64,000 nt of DNA from an uncultured Chloroflexia bacterium (GCA_963766645.1 CAVYAY010000003.1:759221-823220), one strand, 5' to 3'. Shown: positions 2,926 through 15,005, counted from the first letter of the stretch. Numbers and translations are program-made. The notes: a model not told the origin generated them from the sequence alone.

Positions 2926-3879
2926 TTACACTGGCGGCGCTACCCAGAGTCCTGGGTCCGCCTGGCGCATACGGGTTGGAGGCAGGTCGCCTGCCTGAGC
3001 CTGCCTGGCAGGTGGGTCCATCTGAGCGGCCGGCGGGCGGCCCGGCATCTGGGCCGTGCCCCACATGTCGGTCGGTGGATGCTCGCGCGGCGTCCAGGCG
3101 TCTTCGTTCGTAATCTGCTCGACTTCGGCTGTGTACTCTGAGACGTTGCCCTGGGGGTCGAAGAAGTAATAGAAGGTATTGTCGCCGGCGGAGTGCCTGC
3201 CCGGGCCCATCATGATCCGGGCACGCCCATCCTTCAGCACACGTCCGGATCCACGCATCATGTCGTCGATGCTGCGCACCTCGAACGCGACGTGGTTCAG
3301 AGTCGCGACCTCGCCATCCGCGATCGCGAGGCTGTGGTGATTGGCGTTGCAGCGGTAGAAGCCCATGAACGGGATCCAGTCGGATAGCTTGAAGCCCAGT
3401 CGTTCCGCATAGAACGCCTCGACTTCCTTCCGGTTCGGCGAGTTCAGCACGACGTGATTCAGGGCAACGGGGATTCCCTCGCGCGGCTCGACCTCACGGA
3501 AAGATCTTTGCTCCACACCGGCGGAGACCTCTACCACACGTCCATCAGGATCGAAGAAGCGAAATCCATAGCCCCCGCCGGGCGTTTGCTGCTGCCCGGG
3601 CTCCGACACGAAACGCACTCCAGCTTGCGCTAGGTCAGCCGCGAGCTGGTCGACATCTTCAGGGGAGTCGGCTCCAAAGGCGATTAGGTCGAGTCGCTTC
3701 TCGTCTGCCTTTCGAATGCGGTAGATGTACTGCTCGGGCGAGCCTTCTGCAGCCATGAAGGCGATGTCCTTGTCGCCATCAACCCGCGTTAGACCCCAAA
3801 CGCGATCGTAGAAGTCGAGCTGTTCGTCGAAGTCCGGAACAGCCACGTCTACGTGCCTGAGACTGGTTACTTGCGCCAT
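2926..3879 (-). CDS. Type I extradiol ring-cleavage dioxygenase (VOC/glyoxalase fold, catechol 2,3-dioxygenase / homoprotocatechuate dioxygenase family)
   Basis: Two VOC modules and conserved His/Glu metal-ligand context (..NHVAFEV.., ..HH..); 317 aa intact ORF; GGAGGGGG RBS upstream. Confidence 0.85.
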   Translation of the reverse strand: MAQVTSLRHVDVAVPDFDEQLDFYDRVWGLTRVDGDKDIAFMAAEGSPEQYIYRIRKADEKRLDLIAFGADSPEDVDQLAADLAQAGVRFVSEPGQQQTPGGGYGFRFFDPDGRVVEVSAGVEQRSFREVEPREGIPVALNHVVLNSPNRKEVEAFYAERLGFKLSDWIPFMGFYRCNANHHSLAIADGEVATLNHVAFEVRSIDDMMRGSGRVLKDGRARIMMGPGRHSAGDNTFYYFFDPQGNVSEYTAEVEQITNEDAWTPREHPPTDMWGTAQMPGRPPAAQMDPPARQAQAGDLPPTRMRQADPGLWVAPPV

Positions 3880-3922
3880 TGGAAGACCCCCTCCGACTTA
3901 TGATTGCTAACGAAACTGATTG

Positions 3923-5083
3923 CTAACGAAACGGGTCGAGAGGCGGCAAGCCAAGCGACGCTCGTCCGTACCCCTCGGCGATCGAGTCCCAGTAGAGTGC
4001 CACCTGATGCGAGCCAGCGTGGATGTCGCGGTGGAAGCGCTGCAGGGCGCTGGAATCGTAAAGGGCGTGGCCGCCGCTGGCCTCGAAGAGCCGGTTCGCG
4101 GCCTGCAGGCAGAGCTTTGCGACATAGCCATAATCGCGGCGAATGCTCGCCTGTTCGGGCTCACTCGGCAGTTCTCCTCTCGAGGCGCGTTCCAGCACCT
4201 CTCGCGGCGTGGTCTTGACGATGCGCTTGGCCGCGTCGATTTCGGCAGACGACTCAGCGATCCGCAGCTGTATAGCTATTGATTCGGCCGTACGACCCGG
4301 TCCCGTCTTGCCGCGAAGCTTCTCGATGAATGCATCGAGCATGCCTTGCGCCATGCCTACGAGAGGAGAGCACAGCGTGAAGGGCAGTAGGCTCATGGTG
4401 GGCAACCGATAGCTCGGCCGGCCGTGGAGCTCAAATCCAGGGCTTTTGTAACCGGGAACCATCAACCCCGCCACACGGTGAGGTGGAACGAAGGCATCCT
4501 TGATTTCAATGTCTTTGCTGCCGGTGCCGCGAAGCCCGGAGACAAACCAGGTGTCCACGATCTCGTAATCCGAACGCGGCACCAAGACCATGCACGGCCC
4601 CATTGGCGCGATCACTCCCAGCATGGCCCACGTGGCGCCATCGCTGCCGCTGGAAAAATCCCAGTGTCCGCTGAGGCGAAAGCCGCCCTCCACGGGTTCG
4701 ATTCTTCCCTGGGGCGCAAAGGCGCTCGATGCAAGGACGTCTGGACCGCCTGCGTAGTACTCCTCCTGGGCCTCCAGCGGCCAGTGCCCGATCATCCAGT
4801 CGTGACTGGACCATACGGAGAAGCACCAAGCGGTAGAGCCACAGGCGTGGCCGATCTCCATGCCCAGCTCGAAGTAGAGGTCCATGTCGGCGTTATCGTA
4901 GCCTCCGAAACGGCGTGGGTTACCGACTCGAAGCAGCCCGGCGGACCTGAGATCGTCGATGGTTGCCTGGGGGATCTGGCGCAGTTTCTCGGTCTCTGCG
5001 GCGCGTTCCTTGAGAACCGGCATGAGGTCTGCGGCTCGCCTCAGCAGTTCCTCCCGGTTAACGGTCTCGGCTTCTGTGGCCAT
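3923..5083 (-). CDS. Acyl-CoA dehydrogenase-fold flavin-dependent monooxygenase, oxygenase component (HpaH/HsaA/C2-like two-component hydroxylase)
   Basis: ACAD-fold length and motifs (..GGYDNADMDLYFELGMEIGHACGSTAWCF.., C-terminal ..ALQRFHRDIHAGSH..); start set at internal ATG 5083 preceded by GGAGGA. Confidence 0.8.
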   Translation of the reverse strand: MATEAETVNREELLRRAADLMPVLKERAAETEKLRQIPQATIDDLRSAGLLRVGNPRRFGGYDNADMDLYFELGMEIGHACGSTAWCFSVWSSHDWMIGHWPLEAQEEYYAGGPDVLASSAFAPQGRIEPVEGGFRLSGHWDFSSGSDGATWAMLGVIAPMGPCMVLVPRSDYEIVDTWFVSGLRGTGSKDIEIKDAFVPPHRVAGLMVPGYKSPGFELHGRPSYRLPTMSLLPFTLCSPLVGMAQGMLDAFIEKLRGKTGPGRTAESIAIQLRIAESSAEIDAAKRIVKTTPREVLERASRGELPSEPEQASIRRDYGYVAKLCLQAANRLFEASGGHALYDSSALQRFHRDIHAGSHQVALYWDSIAEGYGRASLGLPPLDPFR

Positions 5084-5156
5084 ACCGATCCTCCAAGTCG
5101 CACTTGCCTTTTTCGAATAGGGTTGGAGTATATTGGCCGCCATGAGCATCTACAAA

Positions 5157-5171
5157 ATCGATATTTGCGAT
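5157..5171. promoter_or_regulatory. LysR-type T-N11-A box (ATCgatatttgcGAT = ATC-N9-GAT) in the divergent monooxygenase/LysR promoter region
   Basis: Perfect ATC-N9-GAT dyad 34 bp upstream of the LysR start and 74 bp upstream of the monooxygenase start. Confidence 0.4.
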
Positions 5172-5204
5172 GCTTATCATGCACCTGATTCATGGAGGCC
5201 CTAG

Positions 5205-6119
5205 ATGAATCTCGCTTCGATCGATCTGAATCTTCTGGTTGCCCTTGACGCGATTCTGGATGAGCGCCATGTGACGCGAGCAGGCGAACGGCTTGGTCTC
5301 ACTCAGCCAACTATGAGCCATACCTTGGGACGCCTGCGTCGGCTCTTTGATGATGCGCTCCTTATCAGGATCGGCCGCGGATACGAGTTGACATCGCTGG
5401 CCACGGATATAAGGAAGCCAGTCCGCGACATCCTCAAGCAGATAGAGCAGACCATCGAGTACCGTCCGAGTTTCGATCCGACTTCGGACGAGCACGTCTT
5501 CACGATAACGGCTTCGGACTACGCCACGTTCGTGGTATTTCAGCCGGCCTTGCGGCGGATGCAGGAGGAAGCTCCCGCCATACGCCTGGAGGTCCACCCC
5601 TTGTTTACCGGGTGGATTCCCGCAATGGAAGCTGGTGACATCGACCTTGGCATTGGGCCATCTGTGCTGGGGCCAGATCTGCCCTCAGAGGAGCTGTTCT
5701 CGGACAAATGGGTCGCCGTTGCCTGGTCAGGAAATAATGAACTGGGCGAGACGCTTTCCTTGGAACAGTACTTAAGCTTCCCCCATCTCGCTTACGGCTC
5801 CAGCCTTCAAAGTTTCGAAGGCATGGGAATCCTGGACCGCGCGATTCTTACGACACATCCCGAAGCCCACGTTGGAATGCTCATGCAGAGTTTCTTCATG
5901 TTGCCTTTCATGCTGCCCGGGACTCGTTACATCGCGATCGTCCACGAAAGGATGGCACTGCAGGTCGCTCGCCAGGGCGACTTCAAGATCCTTCAGCTCG
6001 AATTCCCCACAGATCGTTTTACCGAGGCGATGTTCTGGCATCCTCGACTCACATCCGATCCGGCCCATCGTTGGTTGCGGACCTTCCTTCAAGAATGTAC
6101 AGCGGCGATTGTCTGTTAA
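5205..6119 (+). CDS. LysR family transcriptional regulator
   Basis: N-terminal HTH IDLNLLVALDAILDERHVTRAGERLGLTQPTMSHTL.. plus a LysR substrate-binding domain; divergent from the catabolic operon. Confidence 0.9.
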   Translation: MNLASIDLNLLVALDAILDERHVTRAGERLGLTQPTMSHTLGRLRRLFDDALLIRIGRGYELTSLATDIRKPVRDILKQIEQTIEYRPSFDPTSDEHVFTITASDYATFVVFQPALRRMQEEAPAIRLEVHPLFTGWIPAMEAGDIDLGIGPSVLGPDLPSEELFSDKWVAVAWSGNNELGETLSLEQYLSFPHLAYGSSLQSFEGMGILDRAILTTHPEAHVGMLMQSFFMLPFMLPGTRYIAIVHERMALQVARQGDFKILQLEFPTDRFTEAMFWHPRLTSDPAHRWLRTFLQECTAAIVC

Positions 6120-6225
6120 GCATGCATCAGATCGATGTTAAACATCCCTATTATCGATTTTCCAAATCGTCCATACGTCAATATACTGCCGCTCATCGCG
6201 AACTAAATCGCAGGAGGCAGGAGGA

Positions 6226-8121
6226 GTGACCATGGATAGCTACTGGAACAAGGCCCTCACGAGAAGAATCAGCCGGCGGCGAGCCCTTCTGGCAACCGGA
6301 GGGGTGGCAGGAGCCGCGGCATTCCTCGCTGCATGCGGCAAGGACAAGTCCAGCAGCGGTGGCACCTCTTCAAGCGGTGGCACCTCGACTGGCGGTGGCA
6401 CTTCCACAAGCGGTGGCACGCCGTCGTCTGGGGGCGCGGGTGGGTCTGGCTCCGCAGCTAGTGGTCTCCTCACGGAGCCCGTGAATGAGACTGCCAGCGC
6501 CAAGCAAGGTGGGGTTCTGAAGAGCCATAACACCTTCGAACCATCAACTCTTGATCCACAGCAGTTCCCCAACAACTTCCATTCCAACGCCACCTATAGC
6601 AATCTCTTCCGCATCGAGGACGGAGTCCTTTCGTATAGCACCGGAAACATCATCGGTGACCTGGTCGAGTCCTGGGAGCTGTCTGGGGACAAACTGACAA
6701 TCACAGCGAAGCTGAACCCAGCAGCCCACTTCGCGCCAACCGCGCCTGTCGACGGAAGGGCCGTCGATGCCAACGACGTCGTTGCTAGCTGGCAGCGGCA
6801 CGCCGAGTCAAGCAATCAGCGATTCGATTTCGCGAATTCTGCAAACCCGGCGGCCCCCATCAAGTCGATCGAGGCCTCGGACGAACGCACTATCATCATT
6901 TCGCTAGCGGCGCCGAATGCGGTGGTCACCGCGCGCCTGGCTCGTGCCACGCCGGGCTCGATGTACATTGTCCCGAAAGAGGCCCTGGACCCAGCAGTGC
7001 TGGACCTCAACCGAACCTCTATCGGCAGCGGTCCCTACTACATGTCGGAGTACGAGCCGTCGACACGCATCGTCCTGACACGCAATCCGGGCTTCCACGA
7101 CAAGAACTTTCCCTTAATCGAGACAATCGAGTACCCGACGGTCCCGGAATACGCGGCCTTCCTGGCCCAGTACAAGGCAGGGAACGTTTACGAGGGCCTC
7201 GGCCTTCTTGCGGAAGACCTGCTCCCGGCGAAGAAGGATAACTCCAAGATGGAGTTAATGGCGACTTACTTCTCCACTCTCGTCCCGAGGATCGGTTTCG
7301 GCATGGCGGAAGGGTCGCCTTTTGTCGACGACCGGCTGCGCCAGGCCTGGGTTCTCGGTATGGACCGAGAGCTGTTCCTCACATCCGTCTTCAACAAGGA
7401 CCGGTTCGCCGATGCAGGGCTCGACGTGGTCCTGGCTTACGAGAGTGCCATCCAGGCCAACACCTTCGCGGGGTGGTTGATCGATCCGCTCAGCGCAGAG
7501 TTTGGCGAGAACTCCAAGTTCTTCACGCAGGACGTAGCCGAAGCGAAAAAGCTGGTCGTGGCTGCCGGCCATGAGGATGGTGTGCTCAAGGACTTTGACC
7601 TCACATATGCTGCGGCTGGTGCCGGTGTGCCGGGCACCTACTCGGTATACATCGACACGATCATTGCGCTCATGCAAGAGAGTGGCCTGTTCGAATGGAA
7701 TCTGAACATCATCCAGAATTTCTTTGCCGAGTTCATCCCGGTTTATCACAATCAGGCGCGCGGGACGTTCAGCGGCGTGAGCATTTCGCTCTCAAGTCTC
7801 GCCGAAGACCCTGCGAACTACCTTTTCAGCTACTACAACTCCCACGGCACCTTGCGAATGGGCACGGACGACACCTTGGATGGGATGACCGCGAAGGCAG
7901 TCCAGGAGTTCGATGACGCAGCCCGCAAAGAAATCTGCCATGAAATCCAGCGCTATGAAGGTGGTAAGAACTTCTACCCGCGCTTCGGCGGTGGGTCCGG
8001 CTTCAGTATCGCCTGGCCTGCGGTGAGAAACCGGGAGGTGTACCAGGGCGGCTCAGGCCGCTCCGGCACGCTCAATTCATCTACGTTGTGGATCGACCCG
8101 GCGAAGGCGCCGCTGGCTTAG
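6226..8121 (+). CDS. ABC transporter substrate-binding protein, family 5 (DppA/OppA-like), Tat/lipoprotein signal with Gly/Ser/Thr linker
   Basis: RRRALLATGGVAGAAAFLAACGKD lipobox signal; SBP_bac_5-like length and motifs; two ATCGAT dyads upstream (6131-6158). Confidence 0.8.
   Translation: MTMDSYWNKALTRRISRRRALLATGGVAGAAAFLAACGKDKSSSGGTSSSGGTSTGGGTSTSGGTPSSGGAGGSGSAASGLLTEPVNETASAKQGGVLKSHNTFEPSTLDPQQFPNNFHSNATYSNLFRIEDGVLSYSTGNIIGDLVESWELSGDKLTITAKLNPAAHFAPTAPVDGRAVDANDVVASWQRHAESSNQRFDFANSANPAAPIKSIEASDERTIIISLAAPNAVVTARLARATPGSMYIVPKEALDPAVLDLNRTSIGSGPYYMSEYEPSTRIVLTRNPGFHDKNFPLIETIEYPTVPEYAAFLAQYKAGNVYEGLGLLAEDLLPAKKDNSKMELMATYFSTLVPRIGFGMAEGSPFVDDRLRQAWVLGMDRELFLTSVFNKDRFADAGLDVVLAYESAIQANTFAGWLIDPLSAEFGENSKFFTQDVAEAKKLVVAAGHEDGVLKDFDLTYAAAGAGVPGTYSVYIDTIIALMQESGLFEWNLNIIQNFFAEFIPVYHNQARGTFSGVSISLSSLAEDPANYLFSYYNSHGTLRMGTDDTLDGMTAKAVQEFDDAARKEICHEIQRYEGGKNFYPRFGGGSGFSIAWPAVRNREVYQGGSGRSGTLNSSTLWIDPAKAPLA
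6352..6423 (+). repeat. Four tandem 18-bp repeats (agcggtggcacctc...) encoding the GGTSxS linker of the SBP
   Basis: Direct inspection: agcggtggcacctcttca / agcggtggcacctcgact / ggcggtggcacttccaca / agcggtggcacgccgtcg. Confidence 0.7.
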
Positions 8122-8201
8122 GAGTAGCAGGAAGGCCTTGATAAGTGGGGTCAGCCCTGACAGGACTGACCCCACTTCGTAACGAAGTGGAAGGATTGGA
8201 C

Positions 8202-9303
8202 ATGAGACTCGTGTCATTCGAAGTCAGCACTGCGTTTGGCCCTGCGCGCCGAATAGGCGCTGTCCTGGGGCCTGCACTGGACGACGCTGCGCGGATCGTC
8301 GACCTCAACGCAGGCTTCGAGCAGCTGCTTATCGAAGGCGGCGATCCTCGCGGCAAGGAGATCGCCGCCGTCGCGCTACCGCCTGACATGCTTGCGTTCC
8401 TCGAAGGGGGCGCACCGGCCATGGATCGCGCGCGACAGGTTCTCGACTTTGCCGGCGAGCGCAGAGATGGTCGGATGGATGGCTCACCACTGGTCTTTAC
8501 TCGCAGCGACATTAAACTCCTTGCACCGGTGCCGCGCCCGCGAACGATGCGTGACTTCTCGGAGTACGAAGAGCACATGTCAACGCGGACCGGCGCTCAG
8601 CACAAACAGCCCGGCTTCTACCACTTTGCTTGCTGTTACAAGGGCAATCCCGACATGGTCTTCGGCCCGGACGATCCGATCATCTGGCCCGACTACACGG
8701 AGAAGCTCGACCCGGAGTTGGAGCTGGCCTGCGTTGTCGGCAAGCGCGGCAAGAATCTGACGCCGGAAGAAGCAGCCGACTATATCGCCGGCTACCTCAT
8801 CTTCTGTGACGGCTCTGCGCGGGACGTGATGGGCAAGGAGTACCTGGGGCCGTACAAGGCGAAGGACTTCGGCACCAACCTGGGCCCGTGTCTCGTGACG
8901 CCGGACGAAGTCGGCGACGAGTTGAACCTGCGCTGCTCGCTGAAGGTCAACGGCGAGACCTGGTACGAAGGCAATACGGGCTGGAAGCGAAACTACACGC
9001 ATGCCCCAGCTCCTAGCCTACGCCTCAGACTCTGAGGAGATACAACCAGGCGACGTCATATCCGCCGGGCACCATCGGCCTGAGCTGCAGCGTTGATTCG
9101 GGCAAATGGCCGCAGCCGGGAGACATGGTCGAGCAGTGGATCGAGAACATCGGGACGATGACGATGCGCTGTGAGCGGCTGGCGCGGGAGACCTCGTACG
9201 TACGTGATGGCCTACCCGGCCTGCTGCCACTGCCGCCGAGTGCGGAGGATTTTCCGCAGCAGCTCAAAGACGGGACAGCTGATCCGCTAGCGTCGAGGCG
9301 CTG
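8202..9303 (+). CDS. Fumarylacetoacetate hydrolase (FAH) family protein (HpaG/2-oxo-hepta-3-ene-1,7-dioate hydratase-like), one frameshift near 9000
   Basis: MRLVSFEVS.. FAH N-terminus after an AAGGA RBS; the C-terminal ..EEIQPGDVISAGTIGLSCSV..GDMVEQWIENIGTMTMRCER motifs continue in the +1 frame after about 9000. Confidence 0.7.
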
Positions 9304-9324
9304 ACGACGCCACGGAGGAAAGCG

Positions 9325-9909
9325 ATGGGCGAAGAGCACTACAAGCTGCCGCCGCCGATGTCGAAGGATCCGGATTACGTGGCGCCAACTCGCGAGGATC
9401 TAGTATCCGCTAGCGCGCCGTTAAGCTCGGCGTCGCAGCATGGCCGCATCACGCCGCACGTGGTTTCCGAAGTCATCCTGCACGAAGGCCAGCTCAAGGA
9501 AGGGCGAGTCCAGGGATTCACGATCCGCTGCGACGAAGGCTCATACATCCCGGGCGGCACCGACACGGCGCCTTCACCTCTGGGATACTTCACTACGGCA
9601 ATCGGGTTTTGAATGGGTACCCATATTGCGGGCGTGACCCGCAGACAGAACCTAAACCTCAAGGTAAAGATAACGATAGACGGCGAGTACTTCTCCGAGG
9701 GCTCCGTTTTGCGAGGCGATCGCAAAGCCGGAGCGGAATCTATCCATGTCGAGGTTTCCGTGGAAGGCGACTACCCACCGGACCTTATATCGCAAATGGT
9801 GGCCGAGGCCGAGGCTGGCTGTTTCACGCTCAACGCGCTTCGCAATCCATCGCCTGTGACTGTTAGCGCGACGCTGAATGGGGCGCCGGTCGAAATCGGA
9901 AGTAGCTAG
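9325..9909 (+). CDS. OsmC/Ohr-family peroxiredoxin-like protein with a single in-frame TGA at 9610-9612 at the peroxidatic-Cys position (candidate selenocysteine)
   Basis: ORFs 9325..9612 and 9613..9909 are in the same frame, separated only by TGA. Flanking ..GTDTAPSPLGYFTTAIGF-[TGA]-MGTHIAG.. aligns with the OsmC ..GTNPEELIGAAHAA-C-FSMAL.. peroxidatic-Cys motif. The resolving-Cys motif AEAGCF is conserved further downstream. Confidence 0.55.
9627..9643 (+). other. Candidate bacterial SECIS-like hairpin (6-bp stem TGCGGG/CCCGCA, 5-nt loop CGUGA containing GU) starting 15 nt 3' of the in-frame UGA
   Basis: Seen directly; the apical loop lies 21-25 nt after the UGA, inside the 16-37 nt bSECIS window; GC-rich context makes chance hairpins common. 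Confidence 0.3.
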
Positions 9910-9924
9910 GAACGCGGAGGATGC

Positions 9925-10824
9925 ATGGCAGTAAGACCAGCACCAGCCTGGAGCACCGGCCTGCAGGAGGTCGGGCCCAACACCTACGCCTACCTACAGC
10001 ACGATGGCAGCTGGGGCATCAGCAACGCCGGTTTTCTCGCAGGCGACGATGGGCTGCTCGTTATCGACGCCACAATGGTTGCCGCCATGGCGGAGGCTTT
10101 CATCCAGGAGATCAGGCGCATCTCCTTCAAGCCATTCCGGCACCTGATCAACACGCATAGCCACCCCGACCACACGGGCGGCAACAGGCTGTTCACGGGC
10201 GCGGAGATCATCAGCCATCGCATCTGCCGCGAGGAGATGGCGGGGACGTGGTCCCGGCCACCAGCGGGTGGGTTGCCGGGAGGTCCGATGAGTCTAATGC
10301 CCAGGACGCCCGCGCTCGAGCGAATGTTCGAGATGGTTGCAAACGACCCAGACCGCCATATTCCCCTTCCCAACGTCACGTATGAAGACAGCCTCACGCT
10401 CCACTACGGTGAGACGGAAGTCCAGCTCCTCTATTACGGTCCCGCGCATACGTTCGGCGACACGCTGGTCTATTTTCCGCAATCGAAGGTACTGTTCGCG
10501 GGAGACGTCGCATTCTTCTACTCGATGCCGCTTGTGGGGGGCAAAGTCGGCGGTTGGCTTGAGGTCATCGACCGGATCAAGGACCTTGACGTCGAGCTGA
10601 TCGTCCCCGGCCATGGGCCTGCTGGAGGCGAGCAAGAGCTAGAGGATGAGCGCGAGTATTTTGAATTCGTGATGGAGCAGTCACGCACGTATTTCGACCG
10701 TGGGATGACGCCCGAGGAGGCGGTCAACGAGATAGACCTGGGACCTTACGCCGAGTGGCCGGAGTCGGAACGCTTCATCGCCAATGTCGCGGTCGCCTAC
10801 CGTGAGCTGCGCGGCGAGCTTTGA
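9925..10824 (+). CDS. MBL-fold metallo-hydrolase
   Basis: HSHPDHTGG (HxHxDH) motif, ..GDTLVYF.., ..VPGHGP.. downstream His; 299 aa intact. Confidence 0.85.
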   Translation: MAVRPAPAWSTGLQEVGPNTYAYLQHDGSWGISNAGFLAGDDGLLVIDATMVAAMAEAFIQEIRRISFKPFRHLINTHSHPDHTGGNRLFTGAEIISHRICREEMAGTWSRPPAGGLPGGPMSLMPRTPALERMFEMVANDPDRHIPLPNVTYEDSLTLHYGETEVQLLYYGPAHTFGDTLVYFPQSKVLFAGDVAFFYSMPLVGGKVGGWLEVIDRIKDLDVELIVPGHGPAGGEQELEDEREYFEFVMEQSRTYFDRGMTPEEAVNEIDLGPYAEWPESERFIANVAVAYRELRGEL

Positions 10825-10899
10825 TGCGGAACCATACGAATAAGGGAGGAATAAGAAAAGCAATGCCGGGTCCATTGGTGAGACGAGTGATAACCGGAC

Positions 10900-11325
10900 A
10901 TGATTGCAGACGGGCTCGCAAATGTCCAGACGGACGAGGTCACGCGGGGTGAGCGCTTCACCCTCATCTGGACAACAGAAGGCTTTCCCGTGGATAACAC
11001 CGATCTCCGCGATGGGGGCAAGCGGGAGATCGGCATTACGTTACCTCGTGGCACGGTGTTTCGTGTGGGCGAGATTGCACCAGGGGTCAGATCACCCATG
11101 CATCGTACGAATTCGGTCGACTACGGCATCGTCCTCGAAGGCGAGCTCGATATGGAGATGGATGGCGGCGATCGGGTCCATCTCGCGGTAGGCGATGTGG
11201 TCGTTCAACGAGGCACGAACCACGCCTGGATTAACGACGGAGACACGCCCGCCAAGATGGCGTGGATCCTGATCGATGCCGAACCAGTCCGCATCGGTGA
11301 CCAGGTATTAGAGCCAACCGTATGA
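10900..11325 (+). CDS. Cupin domain protein
   Basis: ..PMHRTNSVDYGIVLEGELDMEMDGG..VGDVVVQRGTNHAW.. cupin two-motif pattern. Confidence 0.65.
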   Translation: MIADGLANVQTDEVTRGERFTLIWTTEGFPVDNTDLRDGGKREIGITLPRGTVFRVGEIAPGVRSPMHRTNSVDYGIVLEGELDMEMDGGDRVHLAVGDVVVQRGTNHAWINDGDTPAKMAWILIDAEPVRIGDQVLEPTV

Positions 11326-11337
11326 ATCCGAGCCAAG

Positions 11338-12028
11338 ATGGATAAGGTCTTCGATAGCCCAGCTGCAGCCATCCATGACGTTGCCAGATGGCGCGACCAT
11401 CATGTTCGGCGGCTTCGTCTCAGCAGGCAGTCCGACGAACCTGATCCTCGCGCTGCGCGAGAAGGGGACGAAGAACCTCACCGGCATCGCCAACAACATC
11501 GGCCTCGGCGACAAGCTGGACATCCTCTGCGAGAAGAAGCAGCTGCGCAAGATGATCGCGTCCTTCGCTGTCCGCGCCTCGGCCAAGCGCCAGAGCCTGT
11601 TCGAACAGCTCTACGCCAAGGGTGAGGTGGAGCTTGAGCTGGTGCCGCAGGGCACGCTGGCCGAGCGCATCCGCGCCGGCGGCGCAGGCATCCCGGCCTT
11701 CTACACGCCAACCGGCGTCGGTACCGTCGTTGCCGAGGGCAAGCGCGTCGAGAGCTTCGATGGTCGCGAGTACCTCATGGAGCGCGCCCTGATCGCCGAC
11801 TTCGCCTTCATCCGGGCCTACAAGGCCGACCGCCTGGGCAATCTTGTCTACCGCAAGGCATCGCGCAACTTCAACGAGATCATGGCCACAGCGGCCCGCA
11901 TCACCATCGCCGAGGTCGAGGAGATCGTCGAGCCAGGCGAGCTGGATCCCGAAGCCATCGTGACGCCGGCCGTGTTCGTCGACCGCATCGTACAGGCGCC
12001 CGCTCATGACGTCCGCTGGTTTAACTAG
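11338..12028 (+). CDS. 3-oxoacid CoA-transferase subunit A (ScoA/PcaI/AtoD-like), frameshift near codon 13
   Basis: MDKVFDSPAAAIHDV.. then, in another frame, ..PDGATIMFGGF..GIANNIGLGD.. (frames 11338 and 11375 differ). Confidence 0.8.
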
Positions 12029-12673
12029 GGAGCTGATCGCGCTGCGCGTCGCGCGCGAGCTGAAGGATGGCATGGTCGTCAACCTCGGCATCGGCCTGCC
12101 GACGCTGGTCGCGAACTTCCTGCCGGCAGGACGCCGACCATCCTGCTGCACGCCGAGAACGGCATCCTGGGTTACGGCGGCATCGTCGTGGACGAGGCGG
12201 AGTTCGACCAGGACCTGATCAACGCCGGCGGACAGCCGGTGACGCTTGCACCAGGCGCCTCGTTCTTCGACAGCGCAACGTCTTTCGCCATGATCCGCGG
12301 CGGCCACGTCGACATTACGGTGCTGGGCGGGCTGCAGGTCTCCGCGAAGGGCGACCTGGCGAACTGGGCTGTTGCCGGCCGTGGCGGCGGCGCCATCGGC
12401 GGGGCGATGGACCTCGCGGCGGGCGCAGGGCGTGTCATCGTCGCGATGGAGCACACGACGCGCGAAGGCGAGCCGCGCATCCTGGAAGCGTGCACCTATC
12501 CGCTGACGGCCGAGCGCTGCGTCGACCTCATCGTCACGAACCTGGCTGTGATCGAGGTGACTGGCGAGGGGCTCGCGCTGCGTGAGCTTGCGCCCGGAGT
12601 GGATGCCGACGAAGTGCAGACGGCGACCGCGGCGAGGCTTACCAAGAACGACGTAAGAACCATGGACCTTTAA
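12006..12673 (+). CDS. 3-oxoacid CoA-transferase subunit B (ScoB/PcaJ/AtoA-like), frameshift near 12130
   Basis: ..LKDGMVVNLGIGLPTL.. then ..ENGILGYGG..GASFFDSATSFAMIRGGHVDITVLGGLQVS..GDLANW.. in a second frame. Confidence 0.8.
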
Positions 12674-12695
12674 TCCGCCTTTCTGGAGGGGTGAC

Positions 12696-13837
12696 ATGAA
12701 CAGCGAGACCAAAGGCGGAGCCAGACCCTACGAGCGGACCATGTCGGCAGCTTCTTGCGTCCGCCGGAAGTACTGGATGCCCGGCGAAAGTTCGACGCAG
12801 GTGAGCTTTCGGAGCCGCAACTGACGTGAGGCCGAAGATCAGGCAATCCTGAAAGTCCTCAGGTTCAGAGAGACGCCGGTCTGGAAATATTCAGCGATGG
12901 CGAGTACCGCAGAACCATCTACTCCGGCGCGCTCGACGAGTCGCTGGAAGGGTTGGTTATCGGTGAGGAGGACATGGGTCACCAGCGCTGAACGTTGGCA
13001 TGGAGCCGACCCGTCCACGGCGGCAGAGGTGATCAAGAGATCAGGCCGATGAGGCTGGTTGCCGGCGCCCGCCTCAAGCAAGTCGCCGCCTCGCAGGTCA
13101 CGAGGCCGGCTTCCTCAAGCAACACTCACCAGGGCCTTGGAAGATAACGATTACACCGCCGAATGCGGGCCTGCTCTGGAAGCCCGGCGTCAGCGACAAG
13201 CACTACGACTCTAAAGGTGAGCTCAAGTCCCAACTGACGCAGATGTACCGGGACGAGATCGCCGCACTGATTAGGGATGGAGCGTCCTACGTCCAACTCG
13301 ATTCGTTGGGCTATGTCATGCGATTTGCCGGACAGGAGGTAGAGCAGGCAGCCATGAAGGAATGGTGGCCGCCGACAACGCGCTCATCGATGGACTCAAA
13401 CAGGACAGCGTCACGTTTGGGCTCCACATGTGCCGCGGAAACAATCGTGGCAACTGGCTTTCCGAGGCCACCTACGAGCCTGCGGCCGAGGTGGCCTTCC
13501 CGGCCTCCACGTCGACCGCTTTCTGCTGGAGTACGACGAGCGAGCGAGCGGGGGGCTTCGAGCCCTGCGCTTTGTACCGAGCGACAAGATCGTCGCGCTG
13601 GGCTTTATCAGCACCAAGACGCCGAAGCTCGAAACACAGGACCTCTGCTTAGCGCGCATCGATGAGACATCGAAGTACGTCCCTCTGGAGAATCTGGCTT
13701 TGGCACCTCAATGCGGTTTCGCCTCGGTCATGCACGGCAATCCCCTAAGCTGGGACGACCAGCGACGCAAACTCGAGCTGCTGGTGAGTACGGCCAGGAA
13801 AGGTCTGGGGGTAAAGGCGGGACCATGGAGGACGTAG
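12696..13837 (+). CDS. MetE-like (cobalamin-independent methionine synthase II family) protein, at least 4 frameshifts
   Basis: GGAGGGG RBS + ATG 12696; family pieces in several frames: ..PYERTMSAAS (=PYRADHVGSFLRP after a shift), ..GLHMCRGNNRG.., ..LALAPQCGFASVMHGNPL.. C-terminal zinc-site motif. Confidence 0.6.
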
Positions 13838-15005
13838 TACTAGTTAGCGGCGCCCGGACGGCCATCGGCCGCTTCCAGGGCGCCTTCGCCGAGACTCCCG
13901 CGTCGGACCTCGCCGCGGCCGTGATCAAGGCCGCAGTCGAGCGCGGCGGCCTGCAGCGCGGAGCAGGTCGACCAGGTCGTTCTCGGCTGCGTCGGCCAGG
14001 TGATGGAGGACGCCTATATCGCTCGACACGCCGCCGTGAAGGCCGGGCTGCCGATCGAGGTGCCGGCCTACACGGTCAACCGCATCTGCGGCTCCGGCCT
14101 GGAGGCGATCAACACGGCGGCGCGCTGGATCGAGTGCGGCGACGCCGAAGATCGTCGTCGCAGGCGGCGCCGAGAACATGACGCGCTTGCCGCACTACCT
14201 GCGCGGCGCTCGCATCGGGCTACCGGCTGGGCGACGGCTCGCTGGAGGACGGCATCCTGCACGTCCTCAGCGACCCGTTCAACCGCTACCACATGGGCGT
14301 CACGGCCGAGAACCTCGCCGCCGAGTTCGAGATCTCACGCGAGGTGCAGGACGAATTCGCGCTGCGCAGCCAGCAGCGCGCTGCCGCTGCGATCGAGGCC
14401 GGCCGTTTCCGCGACGAGATCGTGCCGGTGGAGGTGAAGCGGGGCCGCGAGACAGTCGTCATCGACCGCGATGAGCACCCGCGCGAGACCTCGGCGGAGG
14501 CGCTGGCCAAGCTGTCGCCGGCGTTCAAGGAGGGCGGCAGCGTCACGGCAGGCAACGCCAGCGGCATCAACGACGGCGCTGCGGCGGTCGTGCTGATGTC
14601 CAGCCGCGAAGGCCCGCGAGCTGGGCCTCAGCCCGAAGCTGCGCCTGGTCGCCCGCGCTGAGGCCGGCGTTCGGCCGGAGATCATGGGATCCGGGCCGAT
14701 TCCTGCGGTGCAGAAGGCGCTCGCGAAGGCAGGCCTCACGGTCGACGACCTCGACGTCGATCGAGCTGAACGAGGCTTTCGGCTCTGTGGCCGCGGCGTG
14801 CAGCCTCACGCTCGGCCTCGACCCGAGAAGGTGAACCCCAACGGCGGCGCCATCGCGCTCGGCCATCCCGGTCGGCGCTTCCGGCGCCATTCTGGCCGTC
14901 AAGCTGATGTACGAACTGGAGCGCCGCAAGGGCCGCTACGGGCTCGTCACGCTCTGCATCGGCGGCGGGCAGGGCATCGCAACGATCTTCGAGCGCATCG
15001 GTTAA
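13825..15005 (+). CDS. Acetyl-CoA C-acyltransferase (thiolase; PcaF/FadA-like), multiple frameshifts
   Basis: [21 protein letters not shown].., ..[11 protein letters not shown].., ..[14 protein letters not shown] thiolase hallmarks distributed over 3 frames. Confidence 0.8.

Follow-up and report, generated by a model that had tools for sequence, protein, structure and literature searches.

An in-frame UGA at the peroxidatic position of an OsmC-like gene from a Dehalococcoidia-like genome, very probably a selenocysteine codon

Does the UGA that interrupts an OsmC-like gene at positions 9610-9612 of the 64,000-nucleotide stretch of DNA analysed here (hereafter the window) end a protein, or is it read through, and if so as which amino acid? 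Two open reading frames, 9325..9612 and 9613..9909, lie on the plus strand in one frame, and translation together with an ORF search showed that the TGA at 9610-9612 is the sole interruption of the frame 9325-9909. The initial annotation, which had described this arrangement and proposed a candidate selenocysteine-containing OsmC, was correct in all the coordinates and residues it quoted. Taken as one coding sequence (9325..9909, plus strand), the gene has 194 codons, including a predicted selenocysteine (Sec) at position 96, and ends at a TAG stop at 9907-9909. A Shine-Dalgarno-like GGAGGA, read from the sequence, lies at 9314..9319 (plus strand), 5 nt 5' of the ATG at 9325; by inspection of the sequence, no such motif precedes the ATG at 9613. 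The peptide around the UGA reads ...GTDTAPSPLGYFTTAIGF*MGTHIAGV..., and the UGA (9610..9612, plus strand) opens the motif U-M-G-T, which is of the UxxT type. As argued below from comparison of sequences, this UGA very probably encodes Sec, with a working SECIS element behind it, and 9325-9909 would then encode an OsmC-like selenoprotein; the proposal draws its strength from the conservation of the TGA in 85/85 relatives, its alternation with Cys, a covarying hairpin and the match to a curated family.

For the profile searches, a Cys was put in at the UGA. The resulting protein matches the Pfam OsmC profile PF02566 with E = 1.8e-11 (44.8 bits against a gathering threshold of 27.5), its residues 78-180 falling on profile positions 1-99 of 100, and the NCBIfam model NF041052, 'OsmC-related (seleno)protein', whose curated cutoff is 95 bits, with a score of 119.4 bits over profile positions 7-144 of 144; membership of the OsmC/Ohr family, as first suggested, is thus backed by two profiles above their cutoffs. 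In the AlphaFold2 model the core (residues 85-190) has a pLDDT of about 90 and the N-terminal 39 residues are disordered. When this model was compared with the PDB using Foldseek, the best 32 matches were all OsmC/Ohr proteins, with TM-scores of 0.43-0.61, which are moderate because an AlphaFold2 monomer stands in for a domain-swapped dimer fold; the modelled fold of the product is that of OsmC/Ohr. The nearest solved relative by sequence is PDB 3cje (OsmC-like Jann_2040 from Jannaschia sp. CCS1), a structural-genomics entry that differs in being a Cys form without UGA. To our knowledge 3cje has no assigned function, and we know of no characterised member of the COG1765/YhfA-like branch. In front of the OsmC domain, the UGA-type members conserve an N-terminal motif, LPPPMPKDPxYV (residues 1-44, 9325-9456), which is absent from the Cys-type relatives (these start MTDLVANQGK...) and is modelled with a pLDDT below 50.

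In 13 full-length Cys-type homologues, at about 35% identity, a Cys stands exactly in the UGA column (...GIALCLISHI...), and the profile match to 3cje (E = 2e-13) aligns LTGCVMTQ and GCF with U96 and C166, the Cys-x-x-T-Q of that protein facing U96-x-x-T99. E. coli OsmC has diverged too far to be aligned directly over its full length, and hhalign paired the C-terminal region only, with C166 on Cys125. Both proteins were instead measured against the Pfam profile as a shared ruler, on which residues 43-139 of E. coli OsmC occupy positions 3-99 and residues 78-180 of the window protein positions 1-99. On this ruler, U96 and Cys59 both lie at about position 19, and C166 and Cys125 both at about position 85. 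Lesniak et al. are said to have identified, in 2003, Cys59 of OsmC as the peroxidatic and Cys125 as the resolving residue. The two proposals made at the outset, that the stop falls on the peroxidatic Cys and that the resolving Cys is kept downstream, are both upheld: the first by the Cys-type homologues, by 3cje and by profile position ~19, the second by the putative resolving Cys166 in AEAGCF (TGT codon, 9820..9822, plus strand), aligned with E. coli Cys125 and the GCF of 3cje. The alignment with Cys-type homologues and known OsmC-like selenoproteins that had been recommended thus gave a Cys in the column and an NF041052 score above the cutoff. An hmmsearch alignment to E. coli OsmC, which set the Cys59 helix on the helix of the second Cys, was spurious and was dropped.

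Compared with the E. coli OsmC/Ohr proteins, which are two-Cys organic hydroperoxide reductases that depend on thiols or lipoyl groups, the window protein has the same fold and its two redox residues on equal Pfam positions, but a predicted Sec as the peroxidatic residue. It also differs by an identity of only ~13-21%, by an N-terminal extension of ~45 residues modelled with low confidence, and by an extra Cys, Cys69.

Scanning genomes brought up relatives at 82%, 36% and 31% identity in Dehalococcoidia metagenome-assembled genomes (MAGs) and a further one, at 59%, whose MAG bears the label 'Patescibacteria group'; a metagenome contig from ENA contains another at 48%. All of them carry TGA at the equivalent codon. 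Scanning metagenomes yielded 229 relatives, and the best 80 of these were retained. The loci with the flanking motif make up a set of 85 relatives (31-82% identity, mostly from soil metagenomes and Dehalococcoidia MAGs), whose metagenome part comes from the best 80 of 229; in this set the Sec codon is TGA in 85/85 and TGC, TGT, TAA or TAG in 0/85, and a T at +3 of the UGA (the T of UxxT) is found in 85/85. Among complete family members, C166 is conserved in 80/80 (the metagenome part again being the best 80 of 229), and protein conservation continues on both sides of the UGA. With 229 relatives, and UGA in all of the best 80 of these 229, the OsmC-like selenoprotein is common in soil and sediment metagenomes.

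Some members of this set call for a remark of their own. The 59%-identical UGA-type homologue (L003, DATLSU010000051.1, and L008) lies on a 51-kb contig of the MAG 'Patescibacteria group bacterium', a label that may stem from faulty binning or classification, or may point to a lineage with a different meaning of UGA. In one metagenomic relative (L037:1223-1276) another in-frame TGA follows nine codons past the Sec codon (..QIVQVA*VFHI), at a site that is Arg in its relatives; an error of sequencing or decay of this copy is the probable cause. Public gene calls cut UGA-type members in two, L001:70-705 appearing as 83 aa + 114 aa and P0014 being one half, and as a result the databases hold half-proteins and full-length queries return mostly the distant Cys-type clade.

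The stretch behind the UGA behaves as coding sequence. Against the 82%-identical orthologue (L002), the Nei-Gojobori dN/dS is 0.04 over the 57 codons 5' of the UGA and 0.06 over the 94 codons 3' of it, where 48.5 synonymous and 21.5 non-synonymous differences were counted; these ratios are approximate because dS is near saturation, and pN/pS is still ~0.15. The low ratio after the UGA therefore points to protein-level selection on the 3' half. Between the two orthologues the OsmC-like frame shows no frameshift, its length differing by a net +3 in the variable N-terminal part.

The candidate signal for Sec insertion is a bSECIS-like hairpin at 9626..9644 (plus strand), 14-32 nt 3' of the UGA and inside the coding sequence. 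It consists of UGCGGG (9627-9632), the loop CGUGA (9633-9637) and CCCGCA (9638-9643), with a U9626.G9644 pair that extends the stem. The hairpin, described at the outset as a 6-bp stem with a 5-nt loop starting 15 nt past the UGA, belongs to the minimum-free-energy fold; folded alone it reaches -10.4 kcal/mol (z = -2.9, with 2/200 shuffles as good). In the published bSECIS model the apical loop measures 3-9 nt and has G as its first or second nucleotide, the upper stem has 4-16 bp, the distance from the UGA to the loop is 16-37 nt and the MFE is <= -7.5 kcal/mol (PMC13188914). Here the loop has 5 nt, the stem 6-7 bp, G9634 is loop position 2, the spacing is 20 nt (9613-9632) and the energy is below the limit, so that the pattern check recommended by the initial annotation, and its view that a GU loop 21-25 nt downstream is suitably spaced, both came out in favour of a SECIS element. 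An Rfam search of the whole window at the gathering score, and of 9500-9760 at E <= 10, gave no match; the bSECIS elements of different selenoprotein families have little sequence in common (PMC13188914). The SelB-binding SECIS elements of E. coli fdhF and fdnG, just 3' of their UGA, likewise lie inside the reading frame and have a small apical loop with G-U, but share no primary-sequence similarity with the window hairpin, for which SelB binding is predicted.

Taken from a single sequence, such a hairpin is weak evidence, because in GC-rich DNA the background is high: in this window of 64% GC, a hairpin within the bSECIS limits follows 148/1608 TGA trinucleotides (9.2%). A plain list of same-frame ORFs split by TGA was too noisy at this GC content, and a combined filter for coding flanks and bSECIS was used instead. 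Open, coding-like flanks surround 14 TGAs, and of these that at 9610-9612 alone is also followed by a qualifying hairpin; the same filter gave no second candidate selenoprotein gene in the 64-kb window.

It is the comparative data that we consider decisive, at the level of sequence, for the hairpin. For them, 65 distinct segments of 54 nt, each beginning with the UGA, were aligned without gaps (window 9610-9663 and its homologues, the metagenome part being the best 80 of 229). In every clade a hairpin stands in the equal place, with stems as different as GCGGG/CCCGC, GUGCA/UGCAC, GCCCG/CGGGC and GAGCG/CGCUC, and the peptides encoded across it vary from clade to clade (HIAGV, QLVQVAR, QIARYGH, QLERYAQ). 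In the window the loop G9634 is followed by U9635, and the loops of the 65 distinct relatives likewise contain G-U (metagenome part from the best 80 of 229). Within the 59 sequences that share a common register, 88.6% of the cells are paired versus 22-45% after sliding the partner 1-3 nt along, and 48 cells are changed on both sides versus 13.1 +/- 2.8 in shuffles, of which 0/500 reach 48. The window clade (the window, L001, L002, L003, L009 and L061) has 97.6% of its cells paired versus 40-50% when slid. As controls, four TGC-type genes form 1-3/7 pairs at the hairpin position, with energies of -0.3 to -2.5 kcal/mol, against 5-7/7 pairs and a mean of -10.7 kcal/mol for the UGA-type genes. Since stems and peptides both vary and the TGC-type genes are without the hairpin, the hairpin goes with the UGA rather than with the protein sequence. 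Two pairing registers also emerged from the alignment, i+j=50 around a 3-nt GGU or GUA loop in most clades and i+j=52 around a loop of 3-5 nt in the window clade, its 3' arm having moved by 2 nt and the distance of the G-U from the UGA being about unchanged.

Would the codon then be decoded, but as something other than Sec? Either UGA could be reassigned throughout the genome (code 4 or 25), or a SelB/SECIS-dependent alternative tRNA could insert Cys. Some Patescibacteria lineages do reassign UGA, and the 'Patescibacteria group' label of the relative L003 might be held in favour of the first version; for the second, recoding of Sec sites to Cys by variant tRNAs is reported in some bacteria. 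Reassignment is, however, excluded by the use of UGA as the commonest ordinary terminator of the 64-kb window, where it ends ~31/53 likely genes, including the adjacent MBL-fold gene, whose UGA stop falls at the same residue as in its orthologue; the genetic code is thus standard and the UGA at 9610-9612 a site-specific exception. Nothing was found in support of a Cys-inserting variant tRNA, and a SECIS-type hairpin combined with a redox site that is either UGA or Cys and nothing else is the signature of Sec, in a family (NF041052) that is curated as a selenoprotein family. Taken together, decoding as an amino acid other than Sec is very unlikely.

An even slimmer chance is left for a split gene, in which translation would stop at the UGA and restart at the ATG at 9613, two half-size chains assembling into an OsmC-like fold. 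ORF finders and public gene callers do give two halves, and an ATG directly follows the TGA in the window and in L002; yet the codon after the UGA is Leu (CUG or CUN) in 79/85 relatives (metagenome part from the best 80 of 229) and Glu or Phe in others, so no start codon is conserved, the lack of a Shine-Dalgarno motif noted above speaks against initiation at 9613, the break would take out the catalytic residue, and the Cys-type homologues are single chains.

The neighbouring genes bear on the remaining explanation, that of a damaged gene or a faulty sequence. Compared with the syntenic L002, coding DNA around the locus contains +1 insertions at 8999, 9067, 11386, 12127 and 12134. The first two divide an FAA-hydrolase (FAH) gene into 8145..9035 and 9125..9304, that at 11386 lies in CoA-transferase subunit A and those at 12127 and 12134 in subunit B; the earlier remark that lesions elsewhere in the window are mostly indels agrees with these five insertions. 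Frameshifts in several neighbours are a sign of imperfect sequence quality or of a degree of gene decay. The displaced FAH segments retain 88-100% protein identity to L002, with pN/pS of 0-0.12. Since the neighbouring lesions are +1 only and the segments are under purifying selection, they point to indel errors and not to gene decay, and these frameshifts look like indels introduced in sequencing or assembly, or else like events of very recent date, not like old pseudogenes.

An origin of the TGA by nonsense mutation, or by a substitution error of sequencing, in a Cys-type OsmC gene (a pseudogene or an artefact) might be argued from these frameshifted neighbours and from the lack of Sec machinery within the 64-kb window, but this idea is effectively refuted by the conservation data, and keeps a negligible probability, given the TGA in 85 independent relatives of 85 down to 31% identity (metagenome part from the best 80 of 229), the dN/dS of 0.06 downstream, a covarying hairpin that accompanies the TGA and is missing from TGC-type genes, and neighbouring lesions none of which is a substitution.

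With Sec as the preferred reading of the codon, the following scheme can be proposed. The UGA at 9610-9612 would not be read as a stop, giving one product of 194 residues. By the known bacterial mechanism, the hairpin at 9626-9644 would act as a bacterial SECIS and recruit SelB.GTP.Sec-tRNA(Sec), so that Sec is inserted at position 96. There it would replace the peroxidatic Cys and, going by OsmC/Ohr homology, likely attack a hydroperoxide or another oxidised substrate, itself becoming a selenenic acid. Following the same homology, Cys166 would resolve the selenenic acid into a selenenylsulfide, to be reduced by a thiol or lipoyl donor. We infer the peroxidase chemistry of the window protein purely by homology.

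Such a scheme requires a Sec-decoding organism. Neither selA, selB, selD nor tRNA-Sec was found within the 64-kb window, where a search for tRNA genes of any kind was also negative, and E. coli SelA, SelB and SelD, used as tblastn queries on the window and on all the loci, returned chance-level matches only. The locus is syntenic with a contig of a Dehalococcoidia MAG at 84% DNA identity, and the host genome is Dehalococcoidia-like (Chloroflexota). Chloroflexi are listed among the phyla that contain selenoproteins (PMC1794560). From the purifying selection on the gene and from this lineage we infer a capacity for Sec decoding; the gene itself makes it probable that the Dehalococcoidia-like organism has the trait.

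How new is this protein? An OsmC-like protein (COG1765/PF02566, with a UxxT motif) was among the new selenoprotein families that Zhang & Gladyshev described from Sargasso Sea data in 2005, together with its predicted bSECIS (PMC1088965), and an OsmC-like selenoprotein is listed in reviews of 2022 and 2026 (PMC9312934, PMC13188914). The window protein shares with this family (NF041052) the Sec/Cys column, the UxxT motif as U-M-G-T and a bSECIS-type hairpin directly downstream. It differs in nothing essential, the copy in the window belonging to a GC-rich, Dehalococcoidia-like, soil-type lineage and not to marine plankton. Because the family was described in 2005 and reviewed since, and because NF041052 scores above its cutoff, 9325-9909 is a correct rediscovery of a catalogued selenoprotein family, and current understanding is unchanged. 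Three points go unmentioned in the portions of the published family accounts consulted: how abundant the UGA form is in soil-type metagenomes, the shift of the hairpin register by 2 nt in the window clade, and an invariant Cys69. For annotation, the consequence is practical: standard gene callers split the gene, and the correct call is one selenoprotein CDS.

The invariant Cys69 (TGC codon at 9529..9531, plus strand, in an xCDE motif) is Cys in 84/84 UGA-type sequences, the metagenome part being the best 80 of 229, and Ser in 4/4 Cys-type sequences, these four being relatives from a single Cys-type clade. It is conceivable, though rather unlikely, that Cys69 serves as a third redox residue in the UGA-type branch, in a Sec/Cys/Cys relay working for example by selenenylsulfide exchange. 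If true, such a relay would be distinct from the classical two-Cys cycle of OsmC/Ohr and would possibly go with another reductant or substrate. Still less likely than this three-residue relay is a reading in which Cys rather than Sec would enter at the SECIS-marked UGA.

Finally, the region 2926-14181 around the selenoprotein gene looks like a catabolic cluster. Upstream are a glyoxalase/dioxygenase-family gene (2926-3879, minus strand), an acyl-CoA dehydrogenase (3923-5149, minus strand), a LysR regulator (5205-6119, plus strand) and a family-5 solute-binding protein (6226-8121); an MBL-fold protein (9925-10824) and a cupin (10900-11325) follow the gene, the order near it being LysR, solute-binding protein, FAH, OsmC-Sec, MBL-fold, cupin, CoA-transferase A/B and a thiolase fragment. 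The operon context was considered as a clue to function and set aside, the FAH/MBL-fold/cupin/CoA-transferase order being common only to the closest relative (L002/L007). The thiolase fragment, a 156-aa ORF at 13711-14181 that matches only the first 41 positions of Thiolase_N, is probably another indel-broken gene.
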